Assembly: GCA_964344145.1 (NCBI GenBank)
Contig: CAYFME010000005.1
Location: 1-60,620, forward strand
Reading direction: 5' to 3'
Length of the DNA stretch: 60,620 nucleotides
Origin: an uncultured Gammaproteobacteria bacterium
Lineage (GTDB): Bacteria; Patescibacteriota; Patescibacteriia; UBA9934
The translations under genes and the position numbers were made by a program. Of the stretch, positions 26,322 to 60,620 are shown in pieces; the first letter of the stretch is position 1, and the number at the start of each line of letters is the position of its first letter. The notes under the pieces are model-generated. The model was given only the letters and a program-made list of their open reading frames with translations, was not told the origin of the DNA and made no database searches.

Positions 26322-26339
26322 AGCCCTACAAGCAGCGAT

Positions 26340-26369: not shown

Positions 26370-26384
26370 TCGTGTGTGCGGATC

Positions 26385-26783: not shown

Positions 26784-26810
26784 GTTTACCTCTCAGATTG
26801 CGGGCTGATC

Positions 26811-26839
26811 ATCCTAGCAGGGTTGTTTCGATCCGTCAA
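26811..26839 (-). promoter_or_regulatory. Sigma70-type promoter for 26385-26783
   Basis: Minus strand reads TTGACG (26839-26834), a 17-nt spacer ending CTGC, then TAGGAT (26816-26811). Confidence 0.5.
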
Positions 26840-39978: not shown

Positions 39979-40060
39979 AGTGTCTCCAGTGGAGGTGTTA
40001 ATCTAGTTTATATGATTGTTTTTTATTGAACAAATGTTGGAATAAAGTGTTGACGAAAAT

Positions 40061-40089
40061 TTGACTGATCAGTCCATTTTTGGTTCAAT
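40061..40089 (+). promoter_or_regulatory. Promoter with -35 embedded in palindrome GACTGATCAGTC (operator candidate)
   Basis: TTGACT at 40061-66, a 17-nt spacer with a TTTTT run, and TTCAAT at 40084-89. The dyad lies at 40063-40074. Confidence 0.5.
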
Positions 40090-40112
40090 AACATCAATAG
40101 GACGAATTGAAT

Positions 40113-40133
40113 CTCCCCATTGGGGAGCTTTTT
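40113..40133 (+). promoter_or_regulatory. Leader hairpin plus T-run (attenuator-like)
   Basis: CTCCCC-ATT-GGGGAG is followed by CTTTTT, 30 nt upstream of ATG 40163. Confidence 0.4.
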
Positions 40134-40162
40134 GTCTCCCAAATATTTTCAGCATATTTTGT

Positions 40163-40678
40163 ATGTACAAAGGATCATCCGTTTGGGAGACGTTTATGAG
40201 TATTTGTGACGGTGTACTGGACGTCGGTGAAGAAGTGATGTTTTGTGTTGGTCGGCCTCGTGCCGCTATGAGCATGGATCGATATGAATACATGCAAATG
40301 AAGAGAGGTATTGCCGATGCTCAGCGAAAACGTGCGGAGAAAACGCTACGTGCTAAAAAAATTGCGAAAATTGAGAAAAAAGCAGGCGAAGTGGCGGTGT
40401 TGTTTTCTGAGAAAGGAAAAACAGAATTGTTAAAGTATGCGATTACTCAGCGCATCAAACGTTTGCCCGACGGATATCATTGTTTGGTTTCGTTTGATAT
40501 TCCAGAAGCGGCGGCTGGTACACGAAAACTTTTTAGAGATTTTTTAAAGACAGTCGGTTTCCGACAACTTCACAGGAGTGTGTGGGTTAGTGAGATGGAT
40601 ATCGTGGAATTGATGCGTGTGCTGGTGAAGAGGTTAGAGATTGATTCTTGGGTGTCTATTTTTGAGGCACGAGATTGA
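40163..40678 (+). CDS. Winged-helix plus Cas2/VapD-fold domain protein, paralog of 6040-6558
   Basis: MYKGSSVWETFMSICDGVLDVGEEVMFCVGRP aligns with the paralog N-terminus. The C-terminus is LVSFDIPEAAAGTRKLFRDFLKTVGFRQLHRSVWV. Confidence 0.7.
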   Translation: MYKGSSVWETFMSICDGVLDVGEEVMFCVGRPRAAMSMDRYEYMQMKRGIADAQRKRAEKTLRAKKIAKIEKKAGEVAVLFSEKGKTELLKYAITQRIKRLPDGYHCLVSFDIPEAAAGTRKLFRDFLKTVGFRQLHRSVWVSEMDIVELMRVLVKRLEIDSWVSIFEARD

Positions 40679-45419: not shown

Positions 45420-45422
45420 CAC

Positions 45423-46523
45423 ATGGCATCAAAAGGACAGGTTGATCGCGTCTTCTTGGCCTACATTCTGGGCCTTCTTGTTTTTGGGCTGATCATGTTA
45501 ACCAGCGCCTCTGGTCCGCTTGGCTACGATCGGTTTGGCGACAGCTATTATTTTCTCAAACATCAGTTGATACAGGGGGCGTTGCCAGGGATCGCTGTCC
45601 TCGTGATCGCATCTAAGATCAAGTATCAAGCGTACAAGAAGCATGCGTTTTTGCTGCTTGTTGTTTCGATTGTCCTGCTTGTATTGGTTTTCATTCCCGG
45701 CATTGGTACGGATTTTGGGACGTTTGCAAACTCTTGGGTGCAAATCGGATCATTCTCGTTTCAGCCGTCGGAGATTGTGAAGCTGACGTTCTTTTTGTAC
45801 TTGGCCGCGTGGATGGTTGAGCGGAGTCATGGCGAGATCCACGACGTGCGCGCTGGGCTAATGCCGTTTTTGATTATCTTGGGCATCATTACCATATTAA
45901 TGATGTTGCAACCCGACCTCGGAACGCTGTCCATTATCGCCTCCGTGTCGTTTATCATGTATTTTGTAGCAGGGGGGCCGCTGCGTCATTTGCTTGGGCT
46001 TGGTGCGCTTTGTCTTGGTGCGTTTGCGATTGCGATCAAGGCATCGCCGTATCGCGCGGCGCGTTTGATGACGTTCCTGCATCCAGAGCTCGATCCGCAG
46101 GGCATTGGGTACCAGATTAACCAGGCGTTGTTAGCGATTGGCTCAGGCGGCATCTTCGGCCGCGGTTACGGTCATTCGCTGCAGAAGTTTCAATACTTGC
46201 CAGAGGTCGTAGGGGACTCGATCTTTGCGGTGATGGCCGAGGAGCTGGGATTTGTCTTTACCCTTCTGTTCATCGCAGCGTTTCTGGGGATGCTGCTGCG
46301 CGGGCTGGATATTGCCAAGGGCGCGAAAGATCGATTTGGAAAATACCTCGTGGTCGGTATCATCTCGTGGTTCGGCGTACAGGCGTTTGTGAATATCGGC
46401 GCGATCGTTGGTGTGATGCCACTGACGGGTGTGCCATTGCCGTTTATGAGTTACGGAGGAACGGCATTGGTGGTATCGCTCGCCGCCGCAGGAGTCGTCT
46501 TAAATGTTTCAAAACAATCATGA
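45423..46523 (+). CDS. ftsW: SEDS-family peptidoglycan polymerase (FtsW/RodA)
   Basis: It has about 10 TM segments. Supporting motifs are FQPSEIVKL and LPEVVGDSIFAVMAEELG, plus the dcw context. Confidence 0.85.
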   Translation: MASKGQVDRVFLAYILGLLVFGLIMLTSASGPLGYDRFGDSYYFLKHQLIQGALPGIAVLVIASKIKYQAYKKHAFLLLVVSIVLLVLVFIPGIGTDFGTFANSWVQIGSFSFQPSEIVKLTFFLYLAAWMVERSHGEIHDVRAGLMPFLIILGIITILMMLQPDLGTLSIIASVSFIMYFVAGGPLRHLLGLGALCLGAFAIAIKASPYRAARLMTFLHPELDPQGIGYQINQALLAIGSGGIFGRGYGHSLQKFQYLPEVVGDSIFAVMAEELGFVFTLLFIAAFLGMLLRGLDIAKGAKDRFGKYLVVGIISWFGVQAFVNIGAIVGVMPLTGVPLPFMSYGGTALVVSLAAAGVVLNVSKQS

Positions 46524-47913: not shown

Positions 47914-47944
47914 AATAAACAGCCGTGCAAGACAGCTGTTTATT
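47914..47944 (-). terminator. Terminator after tRNA-Lys
   Basis: AATAAACAGC / GCTGTTTATT forms a 10-bp stem, followed on the minus strand by TGTTTCTTTG. Confidence 0.5.
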
Positions 47945-48019
47945 GGTCCGCCGAGGAGGACTCGAACCTCCGACCCCGGGCTTAAAAGGCCCTTGCTCTA
48001 CCAACTGAGCTATCGGCGG
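47944..48019 (-). tRNA. tRNA-Lys (anticodon UUU), CCA encoded
   Basis: I folded the cloverleaf by hand: acceptor CCGCCGA/TCGGCGG, D arm GCTC-AGTTGGTA-GAGC, anticodon loop CTTTTAA, T arm GGAGG-TTCGAGT-CCTCC, then ACCA. Confidence 0.9.
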
Positions 48020-48061
48020 GCGCCGAATTTATAGCATGATCGAGAAGGAAAATCAACCCTC

Positions 48062-48070
48062 TGCTATACT
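48062..48070 (+). promoter_or_regulatory. Extended -10 element TGcTATACT
   Basis: It lies 6 nt upstream of GTG 48077. There is no good -35 and no SD. Confidence 0.4.
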
Positions 48071-48076
48071 ACAGAC

Positions 48077-49189
48077 GTGCGTATTGCCATGATCGGACAA
48101 AAAGGCGTTGTGGTTGGCGAACGCGGCGGGGGCATTGAGCGACATGTCGCAGAGCTCTCGCGGCGTTTGGTTAGCGCTGGACATGATGTCACCGTTTACG
48201 CTCGCGCAAAGTATGACCCCGATATGCCTGAGAACTTCGAGGGTGTGAAGCTTGTGTATCTACCGACCATCTACTCCAAAAATCTCGAAGCGATTTTGCA
48301 TACATTCTTTTCAACCATCCACGCGCTTCGGCAAGGGTATGACGTTATTCACTATCACGGCGTTGGTCCGTCGACCCTTGCATGGATCCCGCGGCTCTTT
48401 GCACGTGAGTCTACCATCGTCACCACGTTTCACTCGCAAGACCGTTTTCACAAGAAGTGGGGATTCTTCGCGCGGATGTATCTCACCTTTGGAGAATGGG
48501 CGGCGGTGCGCTTTCCACATTTTTGCATTACGGTCTCTCATGTCCTGCAAGTCTACTGTCGCGAACGCTTAGGTCGTGAGACAGTATATATTCCAAATGG
48601 AGCAGAGATGAAAAACGTTCAGAGCTCAGATCAACTGGAACGTTTCGGCCTTTCACCTCAGTCGTACATTCTTAATGTGGGGCGATTGGTCCCTCAAAAA
48701 GGTATCCACCTTTTAATTGAGGCCTTTAGAACACTCGACACCGACAAACAACTTGTGATCGTTGGTGCCCCAAGTTTCTCCAAAGGATACTACCAGCAAC
48801 TCCGAGATCTAGCGGAAGGGGACGATCGCATTCATTTTCTTGGGTATCAGGAAGGTGACACCCTTGACCAGCTGTATGCATACGCTGCCTTCTACGTCCA
48901 TCCTTCAGAGTCTGAAGGGTTGCCGCTTACAGTGCTCGAGGCGATGAGCTATGGACTCGCACCGCTCGTTTCAGATATTCCTGCCAACATGGAGGCGTTG
49001 CATCATACGGGCTTTACATTTCCGTCCGGCAACGTTGATGCATTGCGTGAGGCCCTTGTTCGGCTTTTGCAGCATCCGCAGATCGTTCAAGAGCAATCAG
49101 AGGAGGTGCGCGCCGTGATTGAAGTGGAGTTTAATTGGGAAATGATTGCACAGCATACGGAATCCGTTTATGTCACAGCTCGACATTAA
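48077..49189 (+). CDS. GT4-family glycosyltransferase (paralog of 3574-4734)
   Basis: (M)RIAMIGQKGVVVGERGGGIERHV parallels the paralog N-terminus, and HPSESEGLPLTVLEAMSYGLAPLVSD is the C-terminal motif. The start is GTG 48077, with ATG 48089 as an alternative. Confidence 0.85.
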   Translation: MRIAMIGQKGVVVGERGGGIERHVAELSRRLVSAGHDVTVYARAKYDPDMPENFEGVKLVYLPTIYSKNLEAILHTFFSTIHALRQGYDVIHYHGVGPSTLAWIPRLFARESTIVTTFHSQDRFHKKWGFFARMYLTFGEWAAVRFPHFCITVSHVLQVYCRERLGRETVYIPNGAEMKNVQSSDQLERFGLSPQSYILNVGRLVPQKGIHLLIEAFRTLDTDKQLVIVGAPSFSKGYYQQLRDLAEGDDRIHFLGYQEGDTLDQLYAYAAFYVHPSESEGLPLTVLEAMSYGLAPLVSDIPANMEALHHTGFTFPSGNVDALREALVRLLQHPQIVQEQSEEVRAVIEVEFNWEMIAQHTESVYVTARH

Positions 49190-51737
49190 TCTTAAGACGA
49201 ATCAAGACGTCTTTTCTTGGTCCACGCACTCAGTCGCCGACGTCTTTGCTGAGCTGGACACGAGCTCGCAGGGCCTTGCGCCCGAGCAGGCGAGGGAACG
49301 ATTGAAAGAAGGGCGCAACGAATTACCAAAAAAGCCACCGGCCTCGGCGGTTCGGTTGTTTTTTGATCAACTCGCAAGTCCGTTGATGGCGATTTTGGTC
49401 GTGGCTGGGCTCATGAGTGCGTTTTTGGGCGAGTGGTTAGATGCCAGTGTGATTATCATCGCCGTACTGCTTAATGCGGTTCTAGGGTTTTTTGAAGAGT
49501 ACAAGGCAGATCGATCGCTCGAAGAGCTGAGTGCCTTTTTGCCAGAGCAAGCGCGCGTGCGTCGTGGTGGAGCGGTGATGTTGATTGATGCGCGCGAGAT
49601 TGTTCCTGGAGACATCATGGTGTTGCAAACGGGTGACAAGATTACAGCCGACGGCCGTTTGACAGTTGCGCGATCGATCGAGGTGAATGAGGCGCCACTA
49701 ACGGGTGAGTCCAATCCGGTGAAGAAGGACACGAGTACGATGACGCAAGTACTGCCTGTCACGGATCAATCGAACATGGTGTTTGCAGGAACGGTATTGG
49801 TAGCCGGTCGTGGTGAGTATGTTGTGACCTCCACGGGTCAGCACACGCAGATTGGTCAGATTTCCGATCTTGTTGCTGGCGTCAAAGAGGACCCAACGCC
49901 GTTACAACAACAGTTGACGCATTTTGCACGTTTTCTTGGCGTGGCTGTGCTTATTCTTGCGGCAATCGTGTTTGGCGTTGGGATGTGGCGTGGGTTTGAA
50001 GCGGCGGAGATGTTCCAGGTATCCGTTGCGTTGGCCGTCTCTGCGGTACCTGAAGGACTAATCGTTGCCATGACCGTCATCTTAGCCATCGGTATGCAGC
50101 GCATCTTGAAACGCAAGGCGCTTGTACGTCGGCTTGTTGGTGCCGAAACGTTGGGAAGCGTGTCTGTCATCTGCATGGACAAAACGGGAACGCTCACAAC
50201 GGGTGAGATGGAAGTTGTATTGTTTGAAGGTGATGAAGAACGTTTGAGGCAAATCATGGCGATCACAAGTACGGCAACACAAGAGAACGAACGGTTTTCT
50301 GGATCGCCGACGGAAATTGCCATGGCTCGCGCGGTAGAACAGGTGGCCGCTGGTGGTGCGCGTACGCTGCACGAGTTGCCGTTTGATTCGGCACGTAAGT
50401 TTAAGGCCGCGCGCGTGGAGGAGGATGGAGAGAAGAAGCTTTTGGTGGTCGGTGCTCCGGAGATGTTGTTTGAGCGGTTGGATGTGAGTGATCCGGTCCG
50501 CGCGCAGTGGTCCGCGCGTTCAGAAGAATTGGCCGCCCAGGGTCTACGCGTTTTATTGATATGTGAGCGCGCTGACACCGGAAGCGATCAGAGTTTGTTG
50601 CCAGAGATGATTATCGATTTGTCGGTCGTTGGTCTGATTGGTTTGGAAGATCCGTTGCGCGCATCATCTCGCGAGACGGTTCACAAGGCGCAACTTGCTG
50701 GGCTACGACCAGTAATGATCACCGGTGATCATCCGGAAACCGCGCTCGTGATTGCAAGGCGTGTCGGATTAGCTCAAGAGATGGAAGAAGTGATCACTGG
50801 CACGGCCTTGGATGACATGCACGATGAAGAGCTGGCTACACGCATTAATGATCTTTTTGTTTTCGCACGCGTACTGCCGCGTCACAAGCTCCGCCTTGTG
50901 CGCGCGTGGCAAGATGCGGGCGCATCGGTCGCCATGATCGGTGATGGAGTAAACGATGCCCCTGCAATGAAAGCGGCGGACATTGGCGTCGCCCTTGGAT
51001 CCGGCACAGCTGTCACCAAAGAGACAGCAGACATGGTGTTGCTTGATAATCACTTCAAGACAATCGTTGCCGCCATTCGCGAGGGCCGCATCATGTTCGA
51101 CAACATCCGCAAGATGATCGTGTACCTTCTCTCTGACAGCTTCAGCGAGATTATTCTGATTCTGGCCGCTCTTATCATGAGTATCCCGTTACCAATTTTG
51201 CCAGCACAAATTCTTTGGATCAACTTGGTGACCGACGGCTTCTCTAGTATTGCCCTCACGTTCGAGCCGGGTGAGGACGGGGTGATGCGCGAACCGCCGC
51301 GCAAGAAGCGTGAGCCGTTGCTAAACTTGGAAATGAAAGTGATCATTTTTGTGATCGGTATCGTAACGGATTTGCTCCTATTGGGAGTCTACTTGTACAT
51401 GATGCATCTCGATGTCGCATCACTCGAACACATCAGGACCTTTATCTTTGCGGCACTTGGTATGGATTCGTTGCTGTATGTTTTTGCTGTGCGCAAGTTC
51501 CGCACGAGCATCATCCACTCGAACCCATTTGAGAACAGATGGTTGCTGGTTGGAACGGGTGTGGGCTTCCTCTTCCTGCTGATGCCGATGTTCATCCCAC
51601 CACTCAAAGCGGCCTTTGGCTTCACGTCACTCACGGGCTTTGAATGGCTTGCGATTGTTAGCCTAGGACTGGTGAACCTTCTATTGATTGAGCTGGTGAA
51701 GGGAGTCTTTATCCGTTTACATCGACCAGCGACATAG
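49170..51737 (+). CDS. P-type cation-transporting ATPase (type II, Ca2+/Mg2+-like)
   Basis: Supporting motifs are TGES, VPEGL, ICMDKTGTLT, MITGDHPETA and GDGVNDAPAMKAADIGVA. The start is either 49146 or 49170. Confidence 0.9.
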   Translation: MSQLDINLKTNQDVFSWSTHSVADVFAELDTSSQGLAPEQARERLKEGRNELPKKPPASAVRLFFDQLASPLMAILVVAGLMSAFLGEWLDASVIIIAVLLNAVLGFFEEYKADRSLEELSAFLPEQARVRRGGAVMLIDAREIVPGDIMVLQTGDKITADGRLTVARSIEVNEAPLTGESNPVKKDTSTMTQVLPVTDQSNMVFAGTVLVAGRGEYVVTSTGQHTQIGQISDLVAGVKEDPTPLQQQLTHFARFLGVAVLILAAIVFGVGMWRGFEAAEMFQVSVALAVSAVPEGLIVAMTVILAIGMQRILKRKALVRRLVGAETLGSVSVICMDKTGTLTTGEMEVVLFEGDEERLRQIMAITSTATQENERFSGSPTEIAMARAVEQVAAGGARTLHELPFDSARKFKAARVEEDGEKKLLVVGAPEMLFERLDVSDPVRAQWSARSEELAAQGLRVLLICERADTGSDQSLLPEMIIDLSVVGLIGLEDPLRASSRETVHKAQLAGLRPVMITGDHPETALVIARRVGLAQEMEEVITGTALDDMHDEELATRINDLFVFARVLPRHKLRLVRAWQDAGASVAMIGDGVNDAPAMKAADIGVALGSGTAVTKETADMVLLDNHFKTIVAAIREGRIMFDNIRKMIVYLLSDSFSEIILILAALIMSIPLPILPAQILWINLVTDGFSSIALTFEPGEDGVMREPPRKKREPLLNLEMKVIIFVIGIVTDLLLLGVYLYMMHLDVASLEHIRTFIFAALGMDSLLYVFAVRKFRTSIIHSNPFENRWLLVGTGVGFLFLLMPMFIPPLKAAFGFTSLTGFEWLAIVSLGLVNLLLIELVKGVFIRLHRPAT

Positions 51738-51753
51738 CTATACTAGGAGCACT

Positions 51754-53211
51754 ATGGATCTATCGAATATTAAGAATTTTCAAGATGCTGTCGTTACGGT
51801 GATGGGTCTTGGGCGCTATGAGCAAGGGAGTGGAATGGGCGCTGCAAAGTGGCTGATGCGTCATGGTGCGCAGACGTTGGTGACCGACTTGAAAGATGAA
51901 ACGGAGCTGGAAGAATCGATGAATCTCATTATGGGGTTCTACGAAGAGTATCGAGAGAAATATCCGGATCGAACGATTTATCAACCCGTGTTTATTCTTG
52001 GAGAGCATCGTCGAGATGATTTCCTTGAGGCAGACTGCATCGTAATGAATCCGGGCGTGCCATCGGACTCGGAGTTTATTGTCGCGGCAAAAGAGGCGGG
52101 CGTATCGATTGAGTCGGATGTCAGTTTGTTCTTCCGCTATTGTCCGTTTCCGATTTTGGCCGTGACCGGTACAAAGGGCAAGACAACAACCACGAAGATG
52201 CTCGGCGAGATGATGAAGAAGACGGATGAGAATACGATCGTCGCTGGAAACGTCGGCGTCTCACCGCTGGAGTTTCTTGATGATCTTCTGGAAGGTGGCA
52301 AGGAGCGCAAGATTGTGATCGAGCTGTCATCGTGGTTGCTTGAGAGTCTGCCACCAGCATTTCGTGAGATGGGAAAGGGGCCGGATATTGCCGTGCTTAC
52401 GAACGTGTTTCCAGATCACCTCAACCGGTATCATTCGTTTGGCGACTATGTTCATTCCAAAGAGATTATCTTTGAATGGCAATCGCCCGAGCAGCACACG
52501 GTCCTCAACTGGGATCAGGAGACCGTTCGGTTTATGGAAGAGAAGGTCAAGGCAAAGTTGTCGTGGTGTTCGCAATCGTATCAAGATCATGATGGCTGCT
52601 TTGTGAAGGATGGACAGATCGTCTGGCGTCATGACGGAAATGAAGAGGTTGTGGTGCCGGTTGCCGAGGTAGCGCTTAAGGGCGATCACAACATGGAGAA
52701 TGTGTTGACGTCTGTATGTGCCGCGGCATTGCGTGGTGTTGATCTGGAGTCGATCGCGGCTGTCGTCCGAACATTCGAAGGTGTTTCAGATAGACAAGAG
52801 TTAGTTCGCGAGGTGGATGAGATCTCGTACGTCAACGACACAACGGCAACAAACCCAGATGCGGTCATTGCCGCACTCAAACGTTTTGGGGCTGACGGCG
52901 ATATCATCTTGATTGCCGGTGGACAAAACAAAGAACTCGAGTATCAAACAATGGCTGACGAGGTCGCGAAGACGTGTAAGCACGTGGTTTTGTTTGACGG
53001 TGATGCGTCCGATTTGTTTGAGAAAGCGCTTGGTGATCGTGTGCCAATTAGTAAAGACATTGCGAGCATGGAAGCGGCTGTTCAAACGGCAAAGTCGTTG
53101 GCGGCAAAGGGAGATATTGTGTTGCTCTCGCCAGGCGCGGCAAGCTTCAACATGTTTAAGAATGAGTTTGATCGCGGTGAGCAGTTCCGCGAGGAAGTCA
53201 GAAAGTTGTAA
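51754..53211 (+). CDS. murD: UDP-N-acetylmuramoylalanine--D-glutamate ligase
   Basis: Supporting motifs are VTVMGLGRYEQGSG, AVTGTKGKTTTT and the C-terminal SPGAASFNMFKNEFDRGEQF. Confidence 0.9.
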   Translation: MDLSNIKNFQDAVVTVMGLGRYEQGSGMGAAKWLMRHGAQTLVTDLKDETELEESMNLIMGFYEEYREKYPDRTIYQPVFILGEHRRDDFLEADCIVMNPGVPSDSEFIVAAKEAGVSIESDVSLFFRYCPFPILAVTGTKGKTTTTKMLGEMMKKTDENTIVAGNVGVSPLEFLDDLLEGGKERKIVIELSSWLLESLPPAFREMGKGPDIAVLTNVFPDHLNRYHSFGDYVHSKEIIFEWQSPEQHTVLNWDQETVRFMEEKVKAKLSWCSQSYQDHDGCFVKDGQIVWRHDGNEEVVVPVAEVALKGDHNMENVLTSVCAAALRGVDLESIAAVVRTFEGVSDRQELVREVDEISYVNDTTATNPDAVIAALKRFGADGDIILIAGGQNKELEYQTMADEVAKTCKHVVLFDGDASDLFEKALGDRVPISKDIASMEAAVQTAKSLAAKGDIVLLSPGAASFNMFKNEFDRGEQFREEVRKL

Positions 53212-54536
53212 TGCTCCATTATATAAAACAACTTGTGCCCACGTGGATGACAGCGCCTTATCATTGGGCGCTGGCCTGGGTTTCGGCGTTGGTCTACGGC
53301 TTTCCATCGAATGATTTGATCGTGATCGGTGTGACAGGGACAAACGGCAAATCCTCAACCATACAGTTCATCGCTCAGATGCTTGAGCAAATGGGTGAGA
53401 AGGTTGGGTACACCGGAACGGCTGGCTTTTACATTGCAGGAAGAGAAATCGAGAACAAGATGAAGATGACTATGCCGGGCCGCTTTGTGCTACAGCGTCT
53501 GATGCGTGACATGGTGAAAGCGGGATGCCGTTACGCGCTTATTGAGACAACCTCGCAAGGCATTGTGCAGTTTCGTCATCTGGGTATTAACTACGATGTC
53601 GCTCTCTTTACTAATCTCACTCCGGAGCATATTGAGTCGCATGGTGGGTTTGAAAACTATAAAGCAGCGAAAGGTCGGCTTTTTCAGCATCTCACACGCC
53701 GTAAGCACAAGACGTTCGGGAATGAGCAGATGGAAAAGACGTCGGTGATTAACGTTGATGACCCGCACGCTCCTTTCTATTTAGCGTTTGATGCCGATCG
53801 TCATGTGCGATTCTCTTGGAACGATGGAGAAGCTGGAGAAGATTGGCTCGTGGTTGATCCGAAATCGCGGGGAGATGACGGTCGACGTGTGGAGGTAAAC
53901 GGCGTTGATGGCCTTATTCCGTTGCACGCATCGTTTGAACAAAAGAATGCTATTGCGGCGTTGTCGGTTGTGTACGCTCTTGGATTCAGTTTGCGTGAGA
54001 GCATGAAGGCCATGGCGCATTTGCAACCGCTGCCAGGACGATTTGAGATGATCGACGAAGGGCAAGATTTTAAGGTCATCGTCGATTACGCATACGAACC
54101 TTACGCGCTTGAAGCGTTGCTCAATGCCATTGACAAGCTTGAGCCGAAGCGGATTATCGGCGTACATGGATCGTGTGGAGGTGGTCGCGATGTTGCTCGG
54201 CGCGAGGTGATCGGTCGATTGGCCGGGCAGCGGGACGACATTGTTATCGTGACCAACGAAGACCCTTATGATGAAGATCCACGCGCGATTATCGAAGCTG
54301 TGGCAGAGGGCGCGCGCGCTGTTGGTAAGAAGGAAGGAGACGATCTGATCTTGATCGACGATCGCATGGAGGCGGTGCAGTACGCGATTGATATTGCACA
54401 GAAAGACGATGTCGTTGTGCTGACAGGGAAGGGTTCGGAAACGGTTATGGCAGTGGCAGGTGGGCGCAAAGCGTCTTGGAGTGATCGTGAGGCGGCGGTG
54501 CGTGCACTCCGAAGACGTCAAGCACAAGAGGTATGA
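53211..54536 (+). CDS. murE: Mur ligase, MurE-like (UDP-MurNAc-tripeptide synthetase), short N-terminus
   Basis: Supporting motifs are GVTGTNGKSST, TNLTPEHIESHG and VIVTNEDPYDEDP, which resembles the MurE DNPR region. Confidence 0.7.
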   Translation: MLHYIKQLVPTWMTAPYHWALAWVSALVYGFPSNDLIVIGVTGTNGKSSTIQFIAQMLEQMGEKVGYTGTAGFYIAGREIENKMKMTMPGRFVLQRLMRDMVKAGCRYALIETTSQGIVQFRHLGINYDVALFTNLTPEHIESHGGFENYKAAKGRLFQHLTRRKHKTFGNEQMEKTSVINVDDPHAPFYLAFDADRHVRFSWNDGEAGEDWLVVDPKSRGDDGRRVEVNGVDGLIPLHASFEQKNAIAALSVVYALGFSLRESMKAMAHLQPLPGRFEMIDEGQDFKVIVDYAYEPYALEALLNAIDKLEPKRIIGVHGSCGGGRDVARREVIGRLAGQRDDIVIVTNEDPYDEDPRAIIEAVAEGARAVGKKEGDDLILIDDRMEAVQYAIDIAQKDDVVVLTGKGSETVMAVAGGRKASWSDREAAVRALRRRQAQEV

Positions 54537-55036
54537 GATCAAAAGCTCCAGCACTCGAGCTCGCAGCGGACGAGGAGGTCGTCGCCATCGTGCGACGGAG
54601 TTGGCTCTCGCAAGCGCCGCGACTTATTCTCATCGGCGCGTGGATTCTCATTCCATTTTTCTTTTTCTTCCCGCTACTTGCCTTCGGGCCAATCGGCCTT
54701 TTGGTCTTTGTTGGATGTTGCGCAAGTGGTATCCTCTATGCATTGCGAGAGTGGCACATGTGGTATCACACGATGTGGGTGGTGACGGACCGACGCATCA
54801 TCGACGTTGATCAACTGAGCTGGACCGCACACGAGGTCCACGAGATCACGCACAGAAAGATCAGAAAGATTCATCTGCGTCGGGATACGATTGGCGCGAA
54901 AGTACTGCGCTTTGCCACGGTATGGATTGAGACAAAATCATCGCATACGTACGACGTTGAGTTAGAAGGGGTTCGACGACCAAAGCAGCTAAAGAAGCTT
55001 CTCATTGAATTGCGCAAACTAAGTAAAACGACATGA
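54533..55036 (+). CDS. Membrane protein with bacterial PH (YdbT/DUF304-like) domain
   Basis: It has two TM segments followed by YHTMWVVTDRRIIDVDQ...IRKIHLRRDTIGAKVLRFATVWIET. Confidence 0.65.
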   Translation: MRSKAPALELAADEEVVAIVRRSWLSQAPRLILIGAWILIPFFFFFPLLAFGPIGLLVFVGCCASGILYALREWHMWYHTMWVVTDRRIIDVDQLSWTAHEVHEITHRKIRKIHLRRDTIGAKVLRFATVWIETKSSHTYDVELEGVRRPKQLKKLLIELRKLSKTT

Positions 55037-55455
55037 GCGCAGCGCGTACAACGCAAAAGGCAAAGAAGGCGAGATTGTTTGTTGTTGTGAATGTTTTGAT
55101 TCTATTTTTCTTGCTCATTGCGTTTGGCCGTGAATATGTTGGCAACATCCAGATCGAGCATGAGATCGCTCTTCTGCAAGATGAGAAAGAACAGCTGGAG
55201 CAAGATCAACTTGATACGCTGGCGCTGATTGAACAGTTGTCCAGTGAATATTATTTGGAGTCAGAGGCCCGTACAAAGCAGGGGCTTGGACGTGAAGGGG
55301 AGACGGTATATGTGATTCAGGATGGAGATGATCACAGCGGATCAGAAAGCGGATCGCAGCAGAGCGAAGAAATTTCATTCTCGAATCCGGCACGGTGGTT
55401 CCTGTATTTCTTTGATCCGGTGACATTTGATGGTTTGGAAAAAGAGGGAGAGTAA
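55033..55455 (+). CDS. FtsB/DivIC-like septum formation initiator
   Basis: It has one TM plus a coiled coil (IEHEIALLQDEKEQLEQDQLDTLALIEQL..YLESEARTKQGL), in the dcw context. Confidence 0.7.
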   Translation: MSAARTTQKAKKARLFVVVNVLILFFLLIAFGREYVGNIQIEHEIALLQDEKEQLEQDQLDTLALIEQLSSEYYLESEARTKQGLGREGETVYVIQDGDDHSGSESGSQQSEEISFSNPARWFLYFFDPVTFDGLEKEGE

Positions 55456-55457
55456 GT

Positions 55458-56324
55458 ATGCGTGTTGAAAAAAGTCAGCCAAGGGAGGAGCGTGCAACGA
55501 TGCGCGTTCGATCTATGGCCGCACTCGGTGGTCTTGTTTTGGTTGCGGCACTAGCTGTCTGGTTGTGGTATAGCGCATACATCTTGCATGCGTATGGATC
55601 CCTGATGCGCACGGCGCTGCGGGTCGTGCCACTGCCGGGGGCGTTTGTGATGGATGAGGTGGTGTGGATGCGAGACCTTGCCGAGTTGTCGTGGTTTGCA
55701 GAGGTATCTGGTTTGGATGATCCGTATGATCGTGCCCTTGAGACGTCGGTGCGACGTGCCTACATTCGTGGTCTTGCCGCAGAGGTTGGCGTGACGGTTG
55801 ATGATCAGGAGTTGGCTGCAATGGTTGAGAAGATCGATGCACAGATGCTTGATGCTCTTGGTTGGTCGCACCGTGAGTATGAACGATACCTTGCCGAGCC
55901 ACTGCTGCTGGAGCAGACATTGGAGGCAGAACTCTACGCTTCGTCAGAGTATCAGTCTGGTGCGTACGATGAGATTCTGGCATTGCAATCGCAACACGAA
56001 GATATTGGCATTGCCTTCGCAGACCTCGCTTTGCAATATTCACAGGGAGCGACAGCGGAGCTCAGTGGTTGGTTGGGGTACTTGGAGCGTGAGGAGCTGC
56101 CGAAGGGCTATGAAGCGGTTTGGGAGTTGGAGATAGAGGAAACGGCGATTATTGAGCTTGATCAAGCGTTTGTCTTGTTGCGTGTGTATGACGTGACGTT
56201 TTTGGAGGAAGACGAGCGGCTAAGTGTTGCATTGCAGGAGATACTGGTAAAAAAGGAACCATTAAGTGAGATTTTGGACGATTATATTGCCGAGCATCCG
56301 TTGTTTGTTCAGCTGGTTCGTTAA
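55458..56324 (+). CDS. Membrane-anchored SurA-N/parvulin (PpiC)-like chaperone candidate
   Basis: It has an N-terminal TM. The C-terminal segment FADLALQYSQGATAELSGWLGYLEREELPKGYE resembles a PpiC domain. Confidence 0.55.
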   Translation: MRVEKSQPREERATMRVRSMAALGGLVLVAALAVWLWYSAYILHAYGSLMRTALRVVPLPGAFVMDEVVWMRDLAELSWFAEVSGLDDPYDRALETSVRRAYIRGLAAEVGVTVDDQELAAMVEKIDAQMLDALGWSHREYERYLAEPLLLEQTLEAELYASSEYQSGAYDEILALQSQHEDIGIAFADLALQYSQGATAELSGWLGYLEREELPKGYEAVWELEIEETAIIELDQAFVLLRVYDVTFLEEDERLSVALQEILVKKEPLSEILDDYIAEHPLFVQLVR

Positions 56325-56330
56325 ATACAT

Positions 56331-56409
56331 AGCCCCCTCCGGCTCCCCCATGGCTGGGGGAGAGACTTCACGTGTCACCCCTCCAGTTATGGAGGGGCAG
56401 GGGGAGGCT
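56331..56409. other. GC-rich three-helix structure (outer stem plus two CCCC/GGGG hairpins)
   Basis: The hairpins are CTCCCCCA-TGGC-TGGGGGAG (56343-62) and CCCCTCC-AGTTAT-GGAGGGG (56378-97). They are enclosed by AGCCCCCTCC (56331-40) / GGGGGAGGCT (56400-09), which has one mismatch. Confidence 0.4.
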
Positions 56410-56454
56410 GAGCATTGCGTGCAGCAAGATAGCGTGATATAAAAGGCCCGAAAT

Positions 56455-56530
56455 GCCGCTGTAGCTCAGTTGGTAGAGCAATACTTTCGTAAAGTAGAGG
56501 TCGGCGGTTCAAGTCCGCCCAGCGGCTCCA
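56455..56530 (+). tRNA. tRNA-Thr (anticodon CGU), CCA encoded
   Basis: Hand-folded cloverleaf: acceptor GCCGCTG/CAGCGGC, D arm GCTC-AGTTGGTA-GAGC, anticodon stem ATACT/AGTAG with loop TTCGTAA, T arm GGCGG-TTCAAGT-CCGCC, then TCCA. Confidence 0.9.
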
Positions 56531-56558
56531 AAAAGGACCCAATTTTTGGGTCTTTTTT
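56531..56558 (+). terminator. Intrinsic terminator after tRNA-Thr
   Basis: AAAAGGACCCA-ATTT-TTGGGTCTTTTTT. Confidence 0.6.
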
Positions 56559-56577
56559 GTTTATTATGTTGATATAC

Positions 56578-56606
56578 TTGACAAAATCCCGTTTTTTTGA
56601 TACTGT
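56578..56606 (+). promoter_or_regulatory. House-style promoter of high-GC cassette
   Basis: TTGACA at 56578-83, a 17-nt spacer with a TTTTTTT run and TGa, and TACTGT at 56601-06. Confidence 0.55.
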
Positions 56607-56710
56607 GCGGCGTCAGGAAGTGGCTGAAAAAGTGCCCACCGACGCATCCCCTCGGCCCACCGAGGGCCATCCTACTCGGGAGGCATCCCGATTCCCCCTC
56701 TGGAGGACCC

Positions 56711-57613
56711 ATGCGTACCCTGCTCCTGGCGGCCCTGACCGCCTTCGCCGTGGCCTGCGGGCCGCACCCGACCGAGGCGGTCGTCGGTGACGACACCGCT
56801 GCGGCCAGCTCCGACGACGGCTCCGAGTTCGCCGACGCGGGCACCCCCGCCGACGGCGAGGACACCGACGACACCGGCGAGCCGGCCGAGGTCGACGCGG
56901 ACAGCGACGGCTTCAGCGCCGACGACGACTGCGACGACAACGACGCCTCCGTCTACCCCGGCGCGCCCGAGCTGTGCGACGGCCTCGACAACGACTGCGA
57001 CAGCAGCATCGACGAGGACGCCGTGGACCAGACCATCTGGTACCGCGACGGCGACGGCGACGGCTACGGCGACGCGAGCATCTCCACCAGCGACTGCGAC
57101 GTGCCCACGGGCTTCGTCGGCAACAGCGACGACTGCGACGACTCCGATCCGGCCCTGACCACCGACTGCTCCGGCAGCGGCGACGAGGACACCGGCGGCG
57201 GCTCGAGCAGTGACTGCGCCTCGGACGAGGTGGAGGTTAGCTACGAGAGCTCGGCGGGCGTCGTGGAGCTGTGGGGCATCACCCCGCAGAGCTCCAAGTG
57301 GGGCAGCGGCAACCCGCTGGCGACCGACGATGACGGAGACGGCGTGGCCACCGGCTGCATCGAGTGGACCAGTGGCTCCCTGAAGGTCAACGTGGAGCTC
57401 GACTCCTCCCCGTGGTACGCCGCCTACAACGCCGGCAGCTGCGAGGACTCCGACGGCAGCGGTACGCTGTACGACGGGGACGACCTCTGCCAGTGCGACT
57501 GGACCGGTACCCTCTACGTCGACGGCGTGGAGAAGAGCGTCAGCTCCACCGGCTGGTCGACCGGCGACGGCACGTCCTACTGGGACGAGGGCTGCGACGG
57601 CTACGTCAACTAG
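56711..57613 (+). CDS. High-GC lipoprotein with MopE-like Asp/Cys-rich (putative metal-binding) repeats
   Basis: GGAGG sits 4 nt before ATG 56711, and MRTLLLAALTAFAVAC is lipobox-like. The repeats read DCDDNDASVYPGAPELCDGLDNDCDSSIDED and DGDGDGYGD. Confidence 0.7.
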   Translation: MRTLLLAALTAFAVACGPHPTEAVVGDDTAAASSDDGSEFADAGTPADGEDTDDTGEPAEVDADSDGFSADDDCDDNDASVYPGAPELCDGLDNDCDSSIDEDAVDQTIWYRDGDGDGYGDASISTSDCDVPTGFVGNSDDCDDSDPALTTDCSGSGDEDTGGGSSSDCASDEVEVSYESSAGVVELWGITPQSSKWGSGNPLATDDDGDGVATGCIEWTSGSLKVNVELDSSPWYAAYNAGSCEDSDGSGTLYDGDDLCQCDWTGTLYVDGVEKSVSSTGWSTGDGTSYWDEGCDGYVN

Positions 57614-57633
57614 TCGTCCACCTCGGACCTCTT

Positions 57634-57693
57634 CCGCTCCCTGACGGGGGCCCGACTGAGCAATCTGCTCGACTGGGTCCCCGTTCCTGCATC
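57634..57693 (+). other. Conserved 3' structured element (copy A)
   Basis: CCGCTCCCTGACGGGGGCCCG-loop-CTGGGTCCCCGTTCCTGCATC is homologous to 59129-59179. The stem is GGGGGCCCG/CTGGGTCCCC, with G-U pairs. Confidence 0.5.
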
Positions 57694-57778
57694 TACGCGC
57701 TTTTTAGCGCTTGTTTTGTTACTTTTTTGCTAATTATGCGTATTAATAAGCTTTTGATGCTTTTTTCCTCCTAAATGC

Positions 57779-57807
57779 TTGACAGAATAGGCCTTTTTTG
57801 CTACTCT
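57779..57807 (+). promoter_or_regulatory. House-style promoter of second high-GC cassette
   Basis: TTGACA at 57779-84, a 17-nt spacer ending TTTTTTGC, and TACTCT at 57802-07. Confidence 0.55.
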
Positions 57808-57939
57808 ACGACGTTCGTTCAAAGGCCGGGATACCCCAGCTGACTAGACGAAACCATCCTTTTCACTGGGCACCTGCCCACGGTCCGGCTTGCCGGGCCA
57901 CCGGGCGTCCTGCCCATCACTCGCACTTCGGGAGAACCC

Positions 57940-59115
57940 ATGAAGCGCACCCTGATGGCCCTGCTGGGCCTGTCCGTTCCCACCGCCATGCTCGCCACCG
58001 GCTGCTTCGAGGATGACAACCCCAGCCTCTGCGGCGACGCCGCGACCTGGGAGTCCTCCTCCGGCATCGACCTGAGCGGCTACGGCGTCGACGACGGCAC
58101 CTACATCTGCGTGACCGACTACGGCGACGGCGCCTGCTACAAGGTCGAGGTCGACGGCGTCGACGGCTACTTCTGGGCCACGGACGACGGCACCACCGCG
58201 GCCGCCCTGGCCTGCGAGGAGCTCTACGGCGGCGACGAGGACGACGGCAGCGACGACACCGCCAGCCCCTCGGACGACTCCGGCGTCTTCGACACCGGTG
58301 AGTTCTCGGACACCGCGGACACCGGCGACGGCAGCGACGACACCGCCAGCCCCTCGGACGACACCGCCACGCCCGAGCCCGTCGACAACGACGGCGACGG
58401 CAGCGACGACACCGAGGACTGCGACGACAACGACGCCAGCGCCTACCCCGGTGCCACCGAGACCTGCGACGACGTCGACAACGACTGCGACGGCACCGTG
58501 GACGAGGACGACGCCACCGACGCGTCGACCTGGTACGCGGACGCGGACGGTGACGGCTCCGGCGACCCCGCCGACAGCACGACCGCCTGCGACCAGCCCA
58601 GCGGCTACGTCGACAACGCCGACGACTGCGACGACACCGACGCCACCCTCGACGAGTCCTGCGAGAGCACCGACTCCGACGGCGACGGCTACTACGCGGG
58701 CATCGACGACTGCAACGACGAGGACGCCACGGTCAACCCGGACTACGACTACCACAACTACTGCGGGACCCCCGTGTCCAACAGCGGCACCTGGTACCTC
58801 TACGCCTGGGACGACTACAACTACGACTTCAGCACCTGGATCAACCAGAGTGACAGTCACGTGGCCAGCGCCGAGGACACGGACGAGGCCTGCGGGTGCT
58901 ACCACGCCCCCACCGGCGCCGTCGTGGAGTTCAACGCCGACAACGGCAGCTCCAACGACAGCGACGACATGGTCTACTCCTGCTCGAGCCAGGGCTCCGC
59001 GGTCTACTTCGACGGCACGAACACCTGCTCCGACGTCTCCTTCACCTGGGACGGCGTCGAGGTCACGGAGTTCGACTACGAGGACGGCCACAACATGACC
59101 ATCACGGTGCCCTAG
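57940..59115 (+). CDS. High-GC lipoprotein with MopE-like Asp/Cys-rich repeats
   Basis: GGGAGA sits 4 nt before the ATG. MKRTLMALLGLSVPTAMLATGC carries the lipobox LATGC. The repeat reads DCDDNDASAYPGATETCDDVDNDCDGTVDED. Confidence 0.7.
   Translation: MKRTLMALLGLSVPTAMLATGCFEDDNPSLCGDAATWESSSGIDLSGYGVDDGTYICVTDYGDGACYKVEVDGVDGYFWATDDGTTAAALACEELYGGDEDDGSDDTASPSDDSGVFDTGEFSDTADTGDGSDDTASPSDDTATPEPVDNDGDGSDDTEDCDDNDASAYPGATETCDDVDNDCDGTVDEDDATDASTWYADADGDGSGDPADSTTACDQPSGYVDNADDCDDTDATLDESCESTDSDGDGYYAGIDDCNDEDATVNPDYDYHNYCGTPVSNSGTWYLYAWDDYNYDFSTWINQSDSHVASAEDTDEACGCYHAPTGAVVEFNADNGSSNDSDDMVYSCSSQGSAVYFDGTNTCSDVSFTWDGVEVTEFDYEDGHNMTITVP
58243..58362 (+). repeat. 36-nt perfect direct repeat (58243-58278 and 58327-58362), 84-nt period, in frame
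   Basis: GACGGCAGCGACGACACCGCCAGCCCCTCGGACGAC occurs twice and encodes DGSDDTASPSDD. Confidence 0.85.
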
Positions 59116-59128
59116 GCACCTGACCGCT

Positions 59129-59179
59129 CCGCTCCCCGACGGGGGCCCGGCATCTACGCTGGGTCCCCGTTCCTGCATC
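59129..59179 (+). other. Conserved 3' structured element (copy B)
   Basis: CCGCTCCCCGACGGGGGCCCG-GCATCTACG-CTGGGTCCCCGTTCCTGCATC ends 2 nt before the rpsB -35 box. Confidence 0.5.
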
Positions 59180-59181
59180 CA

Positions 59182-59210
59182 TTGACAGAAATGGCTGTTT
59201 TTTGTAGACT
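59182..59210 (+). promoter_or_regulatory. Promoter for rpsB-tsf
   Basis: TTGACA at 59182-87, a 17-nt spacer with a TTTTTT run, and TAGACT at 59205-10. The leader is about 110 nt long. Confidence 0.6.
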
Positions 59211-59326
59211 TTCGCCATCGCAAATCTACTTAATATCTCAGGTTTGAAGCGATGCAGATGGCTCCTCCCTCGTTTCGTTGAAGCGCGGGCCCATGTGTTC
59301 AAGCCGACGACTAAAAGGACTAATCT

Positions 59327-60022
59327 ATGGCAATGCCAACTTTGACCGACCTGTTGAAGGCCGGTGTCCACTTTGGTCATCGCACCTCGCGATGGCATCC
59401 TGCGATGCGCCAGTATATCTTCGGCGTTCGCAAAGGCGTTCATGTCATCGACATTGAACAAACGAAAGCTCAGCTTGAAAAAGCAATGGGCGAGATCGAA
59501 GAGATCGTCGCAAAGGGAGGGAAAATTATGTTCATTGGTACCAAGCCACAGGTGCAGGACATGGTTGAGAAGTATGCAACCGAATGTGGTATGCCATTTG
59601 TCAGCGGTCGCTGGCTCGGCGGAACGTTCACAAACTTCGAAGAGATTCGAAAGCTTGTGAAGGAATTTCTCGACTTGCAAGACAAGCGCGAGAAGGGTGA
59701 GTTGCGTAAGTACACCAAGCTTGAGCAGTTGCAGTTCGATCGCAAGATTGATGAGCTTGATGAAAAGATCGGTGGTTTGACTACGCTCACCAAGTTGCCA
59801 GAAGCTGTATTCGTCTTTGACATGCGTCACGACAAAACAGCTGTTGCCGAGGCAAGCAAGACCGGCGTGAAAGTGTTTGCCCTGTGTGACACAAACGTCA
59901 ATCCAAAGATGGCTGACGTTGTCATCCCTGCAAACGACGATGCAATGAGTTCACTCACGCTTATGGGCAAGCTCGTTATGGATGCCGTAAAGGTCGGCTC
60001 CGCTCGTGCCAAGAAAAACTAA
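59327..60022 (+). CDS. rpsB: 30S ribosomal protein S2
   Basis: LLKAGVHFGHRTSRWHPAMRQYIFGVRKGVHVIDIEQT is canonical S2. Confidence 0.95.
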   Translation: MAMPTLTDLLKAGVHFGHRTSRWHPAMRQYIFGVRKGVHVIDIEQTKAQLEKAMGEIEEIVAKGGKIMFIGTKPQVQDMVEKYATECGMPFVSGRWLGGTFTNFEEIRKLVKEFLDLQDKREKGELRKYTKLEQLQFDRKIDELDEKIGGLTTLTKLPEAVFVFDMRHDKTAVAEASKTGVKVFALCDTNVNPKMADVVIPANDDAMSSLTLMGKLVMDAVKVGSARAKKN

Positions 60023-60032
60023 TTGTACATGT

Positions 60033-60620
60033 ATGAGCATTAGTGCAGCAGACGTAAACAAACTTCGAAAAATGACTGGCGTCGGATTGATGCATGCAAA
60101 GAAAGCATTGACGGAAGCAGACGGTGATTTTGACAAGGCGGCAGAGATTCTGCGAAAGGCAGGGGGGGCACGTGCAGCAAAGAAAGCAGATCGTGAAACC
60201 ACCGAAGGTCGCGTTCACTGCTACAGCCACGGAAACGGAAAGATCGGAGCGATGGTAAAGATCGCCTGTGAAACGGACTTCGTTGCTCGCAATGAAGCCT
60301 TTATCGAGTTGGCAAATGACATCGCTATGCACGTTGCTGCAATGTCGCCGCTGTATCTCTCTCGCGAAGATGTTCCTGAGGATGTTCTTGCCAAGGAAGC
60401 AGAGATTGTAAAGGAGCAGAACACTGGAAAACCGGCTGACATTCTCGACAAGATTGTGGAAGGGAAGCTCGAGAAGTACTACGAGGAAATGTGTCTGCTT
60501 GATCAGAAGTTCATCAAAGATGAAGATATGACGATCCAGCAGCTTGTTGAGAGCAAGATCGCCTCACTTGGTGAAAACATGAAAGTAGTAGGATTCTCCC
60601 GATTGCAAATCGGTGGATAA
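60033..60620 (+). CDS. tsf: Elongation factor Ts (short form)
   Basis: Start is ATG 60033. ISAADVNKLRKMTGVGLMHAKKALTEADGDFDKAAEILRKAG is the UBA-like N-terminus. The TAA stop is at 60618-60620. Confidence 0.9.
   Translation: MSISAADVNKLRKMTGVGLMHAKKALTEADGDFDKAAEILRKAGGARAAKKADRETTEGRVHCYSHGNGKIGAMVKIACETDFVARNEAFIELANDIAMHVAAMSPLYLSREDVPEDVLAKEAEIVKEQNTGKPADILDKIVEGKLEKYYEEMCLLDQKFIKDEDMTIQQLVESKIASLGENMKVVGFSRLQIGG

Follow-up and report, generated by a model that had tools for sequence, protein, structure and literature searches.

GC-rich genes for predicted surface lipoproteins upstream of rpsB in a Candidatus Uhrbacteria genome are probably native

The vlsE/vls system of Borrelia and the PE_PGRS genes of mycobacteria encode variable surface (lipo)proteins, have a G+C (GC) content persistently above that of the genome, and carry signs of gene conversion. 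The O-antigen and capsule loci of enterics and pneumococci occupy a fixed chromosomal slot and keep an atypical composition for a long time. We analysed two adjacent GC-rich genes, here called A and B, which lie between a tRNA-Thr gene and rpsB in a 60,620-nucleotide (nt) stretch of DNA from an uncultured bacterium (assembly GCA_964344145.1, contig CAYFME010000005.1, positions 1 to 60,620 of the forward strand; the whole stretch is called the window below). An initial annotation of the window had read A and B, together with three further GC-rich genes (C, D and E), as foreign surface or effector proteins, taken over from a host or neighbour of high GC and since domesticated. We consider it probable instead that A and B are native genes with a maintained high GC content, whatever the force that maintains it.

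A and B resemble the vls and PE_PGRS genes in encoding predicted variable surface proteins, in a GC content above that of the genome across related species, and in signs of conversion. They differ in that no silent cassette array is present in the window, in the lack of G-runs or G-quadruplex motifs (none was found on scanning both strands) and of a Gly-Ala repeat, and in that their bias concerns C-ending codons over whole non-repetitive domains. Nor did the window show an expression site with silent cassettes; the similarities within it are limited to the MopE regions of A and B and to their 3′ hairpins. With the O-antigen and capsule loci, A and B share the role of surface determinants at a fixed slot, the persistent atypical composition and an envelope-related neighbourhood (Pfam matches in the window include Wzy_C, glycosyltransferases, MurG, Mur ligases, DivIC and a PpiC/SurA-like protein). 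Those loci, however, are low-GC multi-gene enzymatic clusters, whereas A and B are GC-rich single-gene protein determinants. PF11617 (MopE-type), the 'putative metal-binding motif' family, is abundant in Myxococcota-type secretomes. The likeness to its proteins, all of them exported, lies in the motif DCDDxDxxxYPGAxExCDxxDNDCD, which scores above the Pfam threshold in A, in B and in orthologues from two relatives (loci L085 and L087). Typical matches of this family are multi-repeat proteins of 400-690 amino acids (aa), whereas A and B each have one scoring match plus looser DxDGDG/CDD repeats; their C-terminal domains are clade-specific orphans, and the host is a small-genome member of the candidate phyla radiation (CPR), not a high-GC predator. 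A tRNA-linked genomic island would also show atypical composition beside a tRNA gene. Unlike such an island, A and B come without any integrase or att repeat that we could find, are syntenic throughout the clade, and are un-ameliorated despite saturation of their synonymous sites.

Two GC-rich units between tRNA-Thr and rpsB

The GC content of the window is 0.526, and 0.513 with the GC-rich islands taken out. A 200-nt scan with a threshold of at least 63% GC returned exactly five stretches (1-650, 4801-5950, 26301-26750, 56601-57700 and 57801-59200), within which GC ranges from 63 to 76%. These are the stretches that the initial annotation had pointed to when it described a GC jump in the A and B intervals and further islands at 1-591, 4828-5817 and 26385-26783; a recount of the two 60-nt lines that it had quoted also gave the same 29 and 43 G+C. 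At 100-nt resolution, GC climbs from 0.42 to 0.64-0.78 inside about 100 nt at 56600, drops to 0.31 between units A and B, and is back to about 0.45-0.53 at 59150. GC at third codon positions (GC3) is 0.96 in A, 0.98 in B, 0.88 in C, 0.92 in D and 0.81 in E, as compared with a mean of 0.570 (standard deviation 0.031) for 31 background genes. The island genes thus stand at z = 8-13, as atypical in composition as a horizontally acquired island is expected to be.

All features of the A-B locus are on the + strand. It is preceded by the tRNA-Thr gene (anticodon CGT; 56455-56530; found by ARAGORN and, at 68.4 bits, as an Rfam tRNA) and by its terminator, a hairpin with a T-run (56529-56559, from a terminator scan). 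Unit A opens with the promoter TTGACA-N17-TACTGT (56578-56606, an exact pattern match) and a C-rich 5′ leader (56607-56710; GC 0.67, C 0.38, T 0.13), which contains the Shine-Dalgarno sequence GGAGG (56702-56706). Open reading frame (ORF) A follows (56711-57613, 300 aa), then a GC-rich hairpin (57643-57685, fold z = -3.3) and a canonical terminator of hairpin and T-run (57697-57720, terminator scan). Unit B has the promoter TTGACA-N17-TACTCT (57779-57807, a pattern match, conserved in L085), a 5′ leader of ~132 nt (57808-57939) with the Shine-Dalgarno sequence GGGAGA (57930-57935), ORF B (57940-59115, 391 aa) and a GC-rich hairpin (59138-59171). This hairpin abuts the promoter of rpsB, TTGACA-N17-TAGACT (59182-59210, a pattern match); rpsB itself (59327-60022, Pfam Ribosomal_S2) has a GC3 of 0.59, and tsf comes after it. 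The two islands hold a single ORF each, as had been proposed, and direct reading gave the two Shine-Dalgarno sequences with ACCC and ATG after each of them.

The arrangement TTGACA-N17-TAnnnT was counted seven times in the window, where 0.37 occurrences are expected. D, A and B have one such site each in front of them, and the remaining sites stand before native genes, including rpsB, which bears out the earlier description of house-style promoters before A and B. Each unit closes with a GC-rich hairpin of 12-14 bp. Together these features support the view that the genes are monocistronic, encode exported proteins and are under native-style promoters; each would be transcribed as a separate unit, made up of a sigma-70-type promoter in house style, a long leader, the gene and a 3′ hairpin rich in GC. 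It had also been noted that composition switches just downstream of the -10 element. This is the case in the window, but it is not a rule of the clade, as the leader of the corresponding gene in a relative (L002) has a GC of 0.41.

The leader of B can be aligned with that of its L085 orthologue (~135 nt), and in a fold of this two-sequence alignment a long hairpin is kept through four double-sided compensatory pairs. The leader may therefore be a cis-regulatory RNA. The start motif is also found in L002. Apart from two tRNAs, no Rfam family was found, at E ≤ 1 over 56300-59400 and at the gathering threshold over the whole window. The leader of rpsB is also conserved clade-wide (window 59211-59326; L085 2600-2720; L002 ~1360-1534), with the pattern …CGCCATCGCA…CAGGTTTGARGCGATSC…CCTCCC…; it resembles a structured autoregulatory leader, and no Rfam family was found there at E ≤ 1.

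The proteins encoded by A and B share a plan. ORF A begins with the lipobox signal MRTLLLAALTAFAVAC (…FAVAC) and an acidic linker, followed by the PF11617 MopE-type motif (aa 73-102, 56927-57016 on the + strand, by Pfam), DGDGDGYG and an orphan Cys-containing C-terminal domain. ORF B begins with the lipobox signal …MLATGC, after which come a variable acidic N-terminal/linker region with a DGSDDTASPSDD repeat, the PF11617 motif (aa 160-189, 58417-58506 on the + strand, by Pfam), more DxDGDG and CDD motifs and a conserved C-terminal domain. The residues include 73 acidic, 5 basic and 13 Cys in A and 102 acidic, 3 basic and 17 Cys in B. The lipoprotein-type signals of the initial annotation fit a PROSITE PS51257-type regular expression in both proteins (…FAVAC and …LATGC), and its MopE-like motif scores 47.2 bits in A and 44.1 bits in B against a cut-off of 27.

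Downstream of both A and B stand a shared block of 21/22 nt, with T/C as its single mismatch, and a second block of 21 nt that is shared exactly, where 0.00 and 0.03 occurrences of the searched patterns are expected by chance. The two blocks are the arms of a strong hairpin, so that the hairpin after B is a near-copy, in its arms, of that after A. The leaders, by contrast, are only weakly alike outside the promoter, and the two proteins are similar across the MopE region alone (53% over 107 aa; 71% over 201 nt). Of the proposal that the whole unit had been duplicated in tandem, the homology of the 3′ flanks thus stands, while that of leaders and protein bodies does not extend as far as had been claimed. 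In L085 the A orthologue retains a similar 3′ hairpin and the B orthologue has a different one. Since B's hairpin copies A's in the window while the L085 B hairpin differs, this looks like the footprint of a local gene conversion in the lineage of the window.

A trivial explanation would be an error of assembly or binning, a CPR contig made chimeric with high-GC DNA. Nothing but the composition jump itself speaks for it. Window positions 47940-60045 (12.1 kb), which span every A/B junction from tRNA-Thr to rpsB, recur at 100% identity in an ENA contig (L081, run ERR2281801), and a Logan assembly (L083, run ERR2281800) reproduces island E with its two borders, also at 100% identity. The same architecture is also present in independent MAGs (metagenome-assembled genomes) and metagenomes of other projects. 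The initial annotation had asked that a chimera be excluded: because the junctions are identical in independent assemblies, it is excluded for practical purposes, and we regard an artefact as hardly conceivable.

A GC-rich gene upstream of rpsB in relatives

The nearest relatives by rpsB are Candidatus Uhrbacteria MAGs (88% and 70% identity, with further MAGs at 65-69%), and the synteny downstream of the locus (rpsB, tsf, gap and so on) is common to the relatives. On these comparisons the window belongs to the Candidatus Uhrbacteria (Patescibacteria/CPR) clade. We compared the GC of the 1 kb upstream of rpsB with that of rpsB and the 3 kb downstream of it in about 160 loci. An upstream GC excess was seen in nine of nine loci with an rpsB at least 65% identical and enough flank; it was +0.11 to +0.20 over 1 kb in all but L006, where it was +0.06 over 1 kb and +0.29 in the best 300-nt window. 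The low 1-kb value in L006 is due to the intervening rplT. In ~125 loci with an rpsB at most 53% identical, the contrast stayed within about ±0.09.

The closest of these loci, L085, is a metagenome contig from a sister population, with an rpsB 88% identical to that of the window and 99.97% identity to MAG contig L001. It carries orthologues of A and B, one directly after the other, ahead of rpsB, both PF11617-positive and with the promoter conserved. Across its linker and MopE region the A orthologue shares 74% identity with A, whose C-terminal domain cannot be aligned with that of this orthologue. The B orthologue is full-length (359 aa, lipobox …LNTGC) and alignable end to end at 48-59% identity. 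Homologues of the B C-terminal domain in L085, L001 and L084 were found by genome and metagenome scans.

Six more lineages, with an rpsB 65-85% identical, have a GC-rich gene in the same position upstream of rpsB. In a third species, L086 (rpsB 85%), the end of B is matched at 80% over 79 nt, although the upstream sequence is too short for a GC contrast. Given this match and the tandem orthologues in L085, the A/B pair predates the split of these lineages. The upstream gene of L002 encodes a lipobox protein (…FAAAC) with DT repeats and DGDGYG, that of L087 has a PF11617 match above threshold (A/B orthologues score 40-54 bits), the fragment in L005 shows the same Cys/Asp motif, as judged by eye, and in L004 the last 33 residues match the A C-terminus (E = 5e-5). 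Between the C-terminal domains of the family only loose common motifs can be seen, for example …KVNG… and …DGVEVxV…. GC3 of the upstream gene exceeds that of rpsB throughout: 0.85-0.86 versus 0.46 in L085, 0.77 versus 0.36 in L002, 0.89 versus 0.43 in L005, 0.71 versus 0.42 in L087, 0.93 versus 0.48 in L088, and 0.97 (38 codons only) versus 0.31 in L004.

Several observations on these contigs may be added. Seven independent ones (L001, L084, L004, L005, L086, L087 and L088) break off within the GC-rich gene that precedes rpsB or right at its edge, L001 and L084 in the middle part of the B orthologue, which is rich in repeats; such ends suggest strain heterogeneity, repeats or GC-dependent loss of coverage. 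In L005 the region from the MopE gene to rpsB includes two direct copies of a ~66-nt unit (600-790), each of which has the palindrome GATTCCTGCYTTYGCAGGAATGAC. At 880-1010 of L085, in the AT-rich spacer of 590 nt that parts the A orthologue from the B orthologue, there is the repeated motif TCTATCTAACGTAGGGTT and CCTATCTAACAGAGGGTT. L006 has two GC-rich genes between tRNA-Asp and rplT, near rpsB (7030-9019, - strand), for proteins of 512 aa (GC3 0.67) and 197 aa (GC3 0.91). Both proteins have a transmembrane segment and are without the MopE motif; the GC-rich class is thus broader than MopE lipoproteins.

Between the window and L085, the identity at four-fold degenerate sites, as against the chance identity expected from composition, is 0.48 against 0.46 for B, 0.63 against 0.63 for A and 0.33 against 0.27 for rpsB. 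Synonymous sites between the two have fully turned over. GC at four-fold sites (GC4) of A and B is nevertheless 0.96-0.98 in the window and 0.77-0.86 in L085, as against 0.48 and 0.29 for the respective rpsB genes. Because the excess persists in both lineages despite saturated sites, the bias appears to be maintained rather than decaying; an old, ameliorating import would have lost nearly all of it, so that saturation with persistent GC speaks against import. The genes seem to be kept in each lineage at an equilibrium of their own.

This bears directly on the initial reading, by which the five genes came fairly recently from a high-GC donor, either a host or a neighbour such as a Myxococcota-type organism, were put under native promoters and have not ameliorated. 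Such an event would account for codon usage like that of high-GC organisms, for the sharp GC switch at the unit borders in the window and for the tRNA gene adjoining the A-B pair. It would also fit the database matches, the strongest of which for PF11617 are proteins of Myxococcota-type MAGs: a search with full-length B returned thousands of PF11617 proteins, mostly from such MAGs. These matches, however, cover 14-35% of B, that is, the MopE motif region, and no closest homologue in a plausible donor lineage was found, since the outside matches are to the motif only. The C-terminal domain of A had no relative but itself among 1.84 billion representatives in an exhaustive HMMER search. Homologues of full length, or of the C-terminal domains, appear to be confined to the clade, and D has a homologue only within it. 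In relatives whose synonymous sites are saturated relative to the window, orthologues stand in the same place, with promoter, leader and hairpin conserved, and the patchy presence of an acquired island was not seen: the gene is in all relatives with rpsB at least 65% identical and usable upstream sequence, and D is syntenic in L082.

As to mobility, Pfam scans of ~16 window proteins (not every ORF) showed no integrase or transposase, the 3′ end of the tRNA-Thr gene has no second copy in the window, and repeat scans found no att direct repeats, in agreement with the initial annotation. Two of the observations that this annotation had itself named as contradicting its proposal were made, namely homologues from the same lineage and, in a relative, a D gene near genome-typical GC. 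With syntenic orthologues, sites saturated while GC is kept, clade-only homologues and this D orthologue, foreign capture followed by domestication does not hold up. Recent capture appears largely refuted by synteny and saturation, and we think it very unlikely.

Nature of the codon bias and its possible causes

The shift is general to G/C-ending codons (fractions in the island genes are 0.95 for GAC, 1.00 for TTC, 0.91 for GAG, 1.00 for AAG and 1.00 for CAG). At four-fold sites C far exceeds G (C4 0.73-0.84, G4 0.14-0.23), so the bias is strand-asymmetric. In every lineage it runs evenly through the gene, from the first codon of the signal peptide as far as the stop codon, and it is centred on the coding sequence: in L002, GC is 0.41 in the leader (locus average 0.42), 0.61 in the coding sequence and 0.47 in the 3′ flank. 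In L085 a 345-nt AT-rich spacer (GC 0.39) separates the A and B orthologues. Aspartate (14%), glycine (11%) and cysteine (3.3%) are frequent and Lys, Ile, Leu and Met few, and Asn and Tyr are not depleted. Since they are not, the anomaly seems mainly synonymous, with protein-level selection shaping positions 1 and 2.

Three simple explanations were rejected. Adaptation to the codons of highly expressed genes does not apply, as rpsB, tsf and the genes for L9 and L27 prefer a different codon set; the comparison with translation genes that had been suggested, run on rpsB and tsf, showed that island codons are not an exaggeration of their preference. Amino-acid composition as the sole cause is contradicted by the fact that GC3 carries the effect and by the undepleted Asn and Tyr. 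Slippage of GAC-rich triplet repeats would account for the linkers only, and non-repetitive domains, D and E are equally biased.

We therefore favour, as stated above, native genes under a maintained bias. A and B would be vertically inherited, fast-diverging paralogues in a family of surface lipoproteins that is specific to the clade and whose members are extremely acidic and rich in disulfides, and their high GC a gene-wide bias for G/C-ending, chiefly C-ending, codons, maintained at ~+0.3 to +0.65 GC3 over the own background of each lineage. The leading candidate for the force is selection on synonymous sites or the mRNA of this gene class, for example through a codon-defined expression regime or mRNA stability; the second candidate is GC-biased conversion at recombination-prone surface-antigen genes. 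Anchoring to the coding sequence, uniformity and strand asymmetry favour a force on coding sequence or mRNA, and selection on the coding sequence may accordingly be ranked somewhat above conversion.

It is also possible to see GC-biased gene conversion as the whole cause, with recombination hotspots under diversifying selection in which biased mismatch repair raises GC. The fast evolution of these surface proteins, the conversion footprint at the B 3′ flank and the GC excess that non-coding leaders and hairpins share in the window would be consistent with this. A conversion bias should, however, be symmetric, whereas C4 and G4 are far apart here, and the sharp borders anchored to the coding sequence, with the AT-rich spacer of L085 and the genome-typical leader of L002, do not fit it. 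To our knowledge the effect is also far above any GC-biased gene conversion reported for bacteria. We regard this explanation as improbable.

Another alternative is that the gene bodies are alleles of a diverse GC-rich pool, recombined into the same slot through conserved flanks. That the A C-terminal domain is unalignable between sister lineages whose MopE regions are 74% identical, that promoter, leader and flanks are conserved while bodies diverge fast, and that A's hairpin has overwritten B's in the lineage of the window would all be expected from such a pool. So would the frequent breaks of relatives' contigs within these genes and a GC3 of the islands that follows that of the host only loosely. 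On the other hand, no pool member was seen outside the clade in very large protein collections, there is no candidate for a GC-rich reservoir organism, and B can be aligned end to end with its L085 orthologue, which indicates divergence and not replacement. Exchange from a pool is, in our view, unlikely.

Several points weigh against the reading of A and B as native genes with a maintained bias. The best matches of the MopE motif are in high-GC Myxococcota-type organisms, and the MopE module itself is possibly an ancient import. A word-index search with the B C-terminal domain returned 0 matches, not even B itself, and is uninformative as a negative. The ribosomal-protein and tsf genes favour GCA, GGT/GGA, GTT and TTG and use GAA and GAG equally, a preference other than that of the island genes. 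The untranslated leaders and 3′ flanks in the window are also GC- and C-rich (0.60-0.74), so pure codon selection is insufficient. The regime is not uniform: the D orthologue of L082 has a GC3 of 0.58, close to genome-typical, with flanks at 0.41-0.49, and would have lost the bias or never gained it. A GC3 of about 0.98 through selection would be of unusual strength for a presumably slow-growing CPR organism. Signal peptides were assessed by pattern and by eye, and the material comprises ~60 kb of this genome and 10-20 kb per relative.

A broader possibility, which we put forward tentatively and consider rather doubtful, is that the clade has a second, heritable 'codon dialect' for fast-evolving, exported and mostly orphan surface genes, with GC3 of 0.7-0.98 in genomes at 0.31-0.57 kept up through a full turnover of synonymous sites. 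The cause would then be a so far undescribed process aimed at particular genes. A codon-defined translational regulon, targeted biased repair or conversion, or exchange with an unseen partner pool tied to episymbiosis might cause it. Our literature search found no earlier account of such a gene class in Uhrbacteria or other CPR bacteria. Atypical composition is routinely taken as a sign of recent horizontal gene transfer, and here a strong 'foreign' signature would be a conserved native property. Composition-based calls of transfer and binning filters would misjudge or discard such genes, inside which several public contigs already break. A codon regime of a gene class or targeted biased conversion, if true, would provide a novel instance of compositional control within a genome.

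Predicted proteins and further GC-rich genes

The function of A and B can be approached from their predicted plan, in which a lipid anchor is joined by an acidic stalk of low complexity, a MopE-type module and a fast-evolving C-terminal domain. The cysteines left after the lipidated one are even in number (12 in A, 16 in B), as would be compatible with disulfides. There is a weak match of the motif region to the N-terminus of MopE* (PDB 2VOV, E = 0.0076) and to a dockerin-like Ca2+-type motif, and the Cys/Asp module with its DxDGDG motifs probably binds Ca2+ or another metal. A and B may thus be metal-stabilized stalk modules that bear a variable tip, adhesin-like or in contact with a host or particles. 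The bacterium is ultra-small and likely attached to a host, and as probable major proteins of its surface they would be candidates for the cell-contact interface. AlphaFold2 models of B alone (mean predicted local distance difference test score, pLDDT, 38.9) and of D aligned with its one homologue (pLDDT 33.0) were unusable.

As part of the same reading, C, D and E are probably further exported, lineage-restricted genes in the GC regime of A and B. Island C (1-591, + strand) is the 3′ part of a GC-rich gene cut by the start of the window; it starts within a DQDCDGD motif, has its own distinct C-terminal domain and is followed by a GC-rich hairpin region (595-672). Island D (4756-5920, + strand) comprises a promoter (4756-4784, a pattern match), the Shine-Dalgarno sequence AAGGAG, an ORF of 329 aa with a GTG start and a signal peptide (4828-5817) and a 3′ hairpin (~5876-5910). 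The sole homologue of D in a large protein collection is P0122 on L082, where its position is syntenic, with the same glycosyltransferase before and the same MATCAP-like gene after it, and where promoter and terminator hairpin are conserved. A strong bias in one lineage thus does not prevent the same resident gene from being almost ordinary elsewhere. Island E (26300-26839, - strand) has the promoter TTGACG-N17-TAGGAT (26839-26811), an ORF of 132 aa (26385-26783) with the signal peptide MRLPILFLALVSSASA, and two 3′ hairpins. The N-termini of D and E are plain, signal-peptide-like and without a lipobox.

Between D and the MATCAP-like gene lies a gene of 182 aa (6010-6558) with PaaX central/Cas2-like and winged-helix domains (Pfam E = 2e-11). 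Its GC3 is 0.40, it is missing from the otherwise syntenic L082, and it may be a genuine AT-leaning insertion. Palindromic hairpins centred on CCGATCGG are found at 5945-5975, 6563-6597 and 26235-26267, that is, 3′ of D, of the PaaX-like gene and of E. Two of the three have the prefix GGGTGCAAA in common, and they may represent a small dispersed terminator-like repeat.

Elsewhere in the window, two stretches of ordinary GC (45420-46366, 947 nt, and 29050-29580, 531 nt) have no ORF of at least 90 aa and no Rfam match. The part of the window lowest in GC is 39951-40550 (0.335-0.385 in 200-nt windows); an ORF at 40061-40678 has a GC3 of 0.38, and the stretch could be foreign or non-coding.

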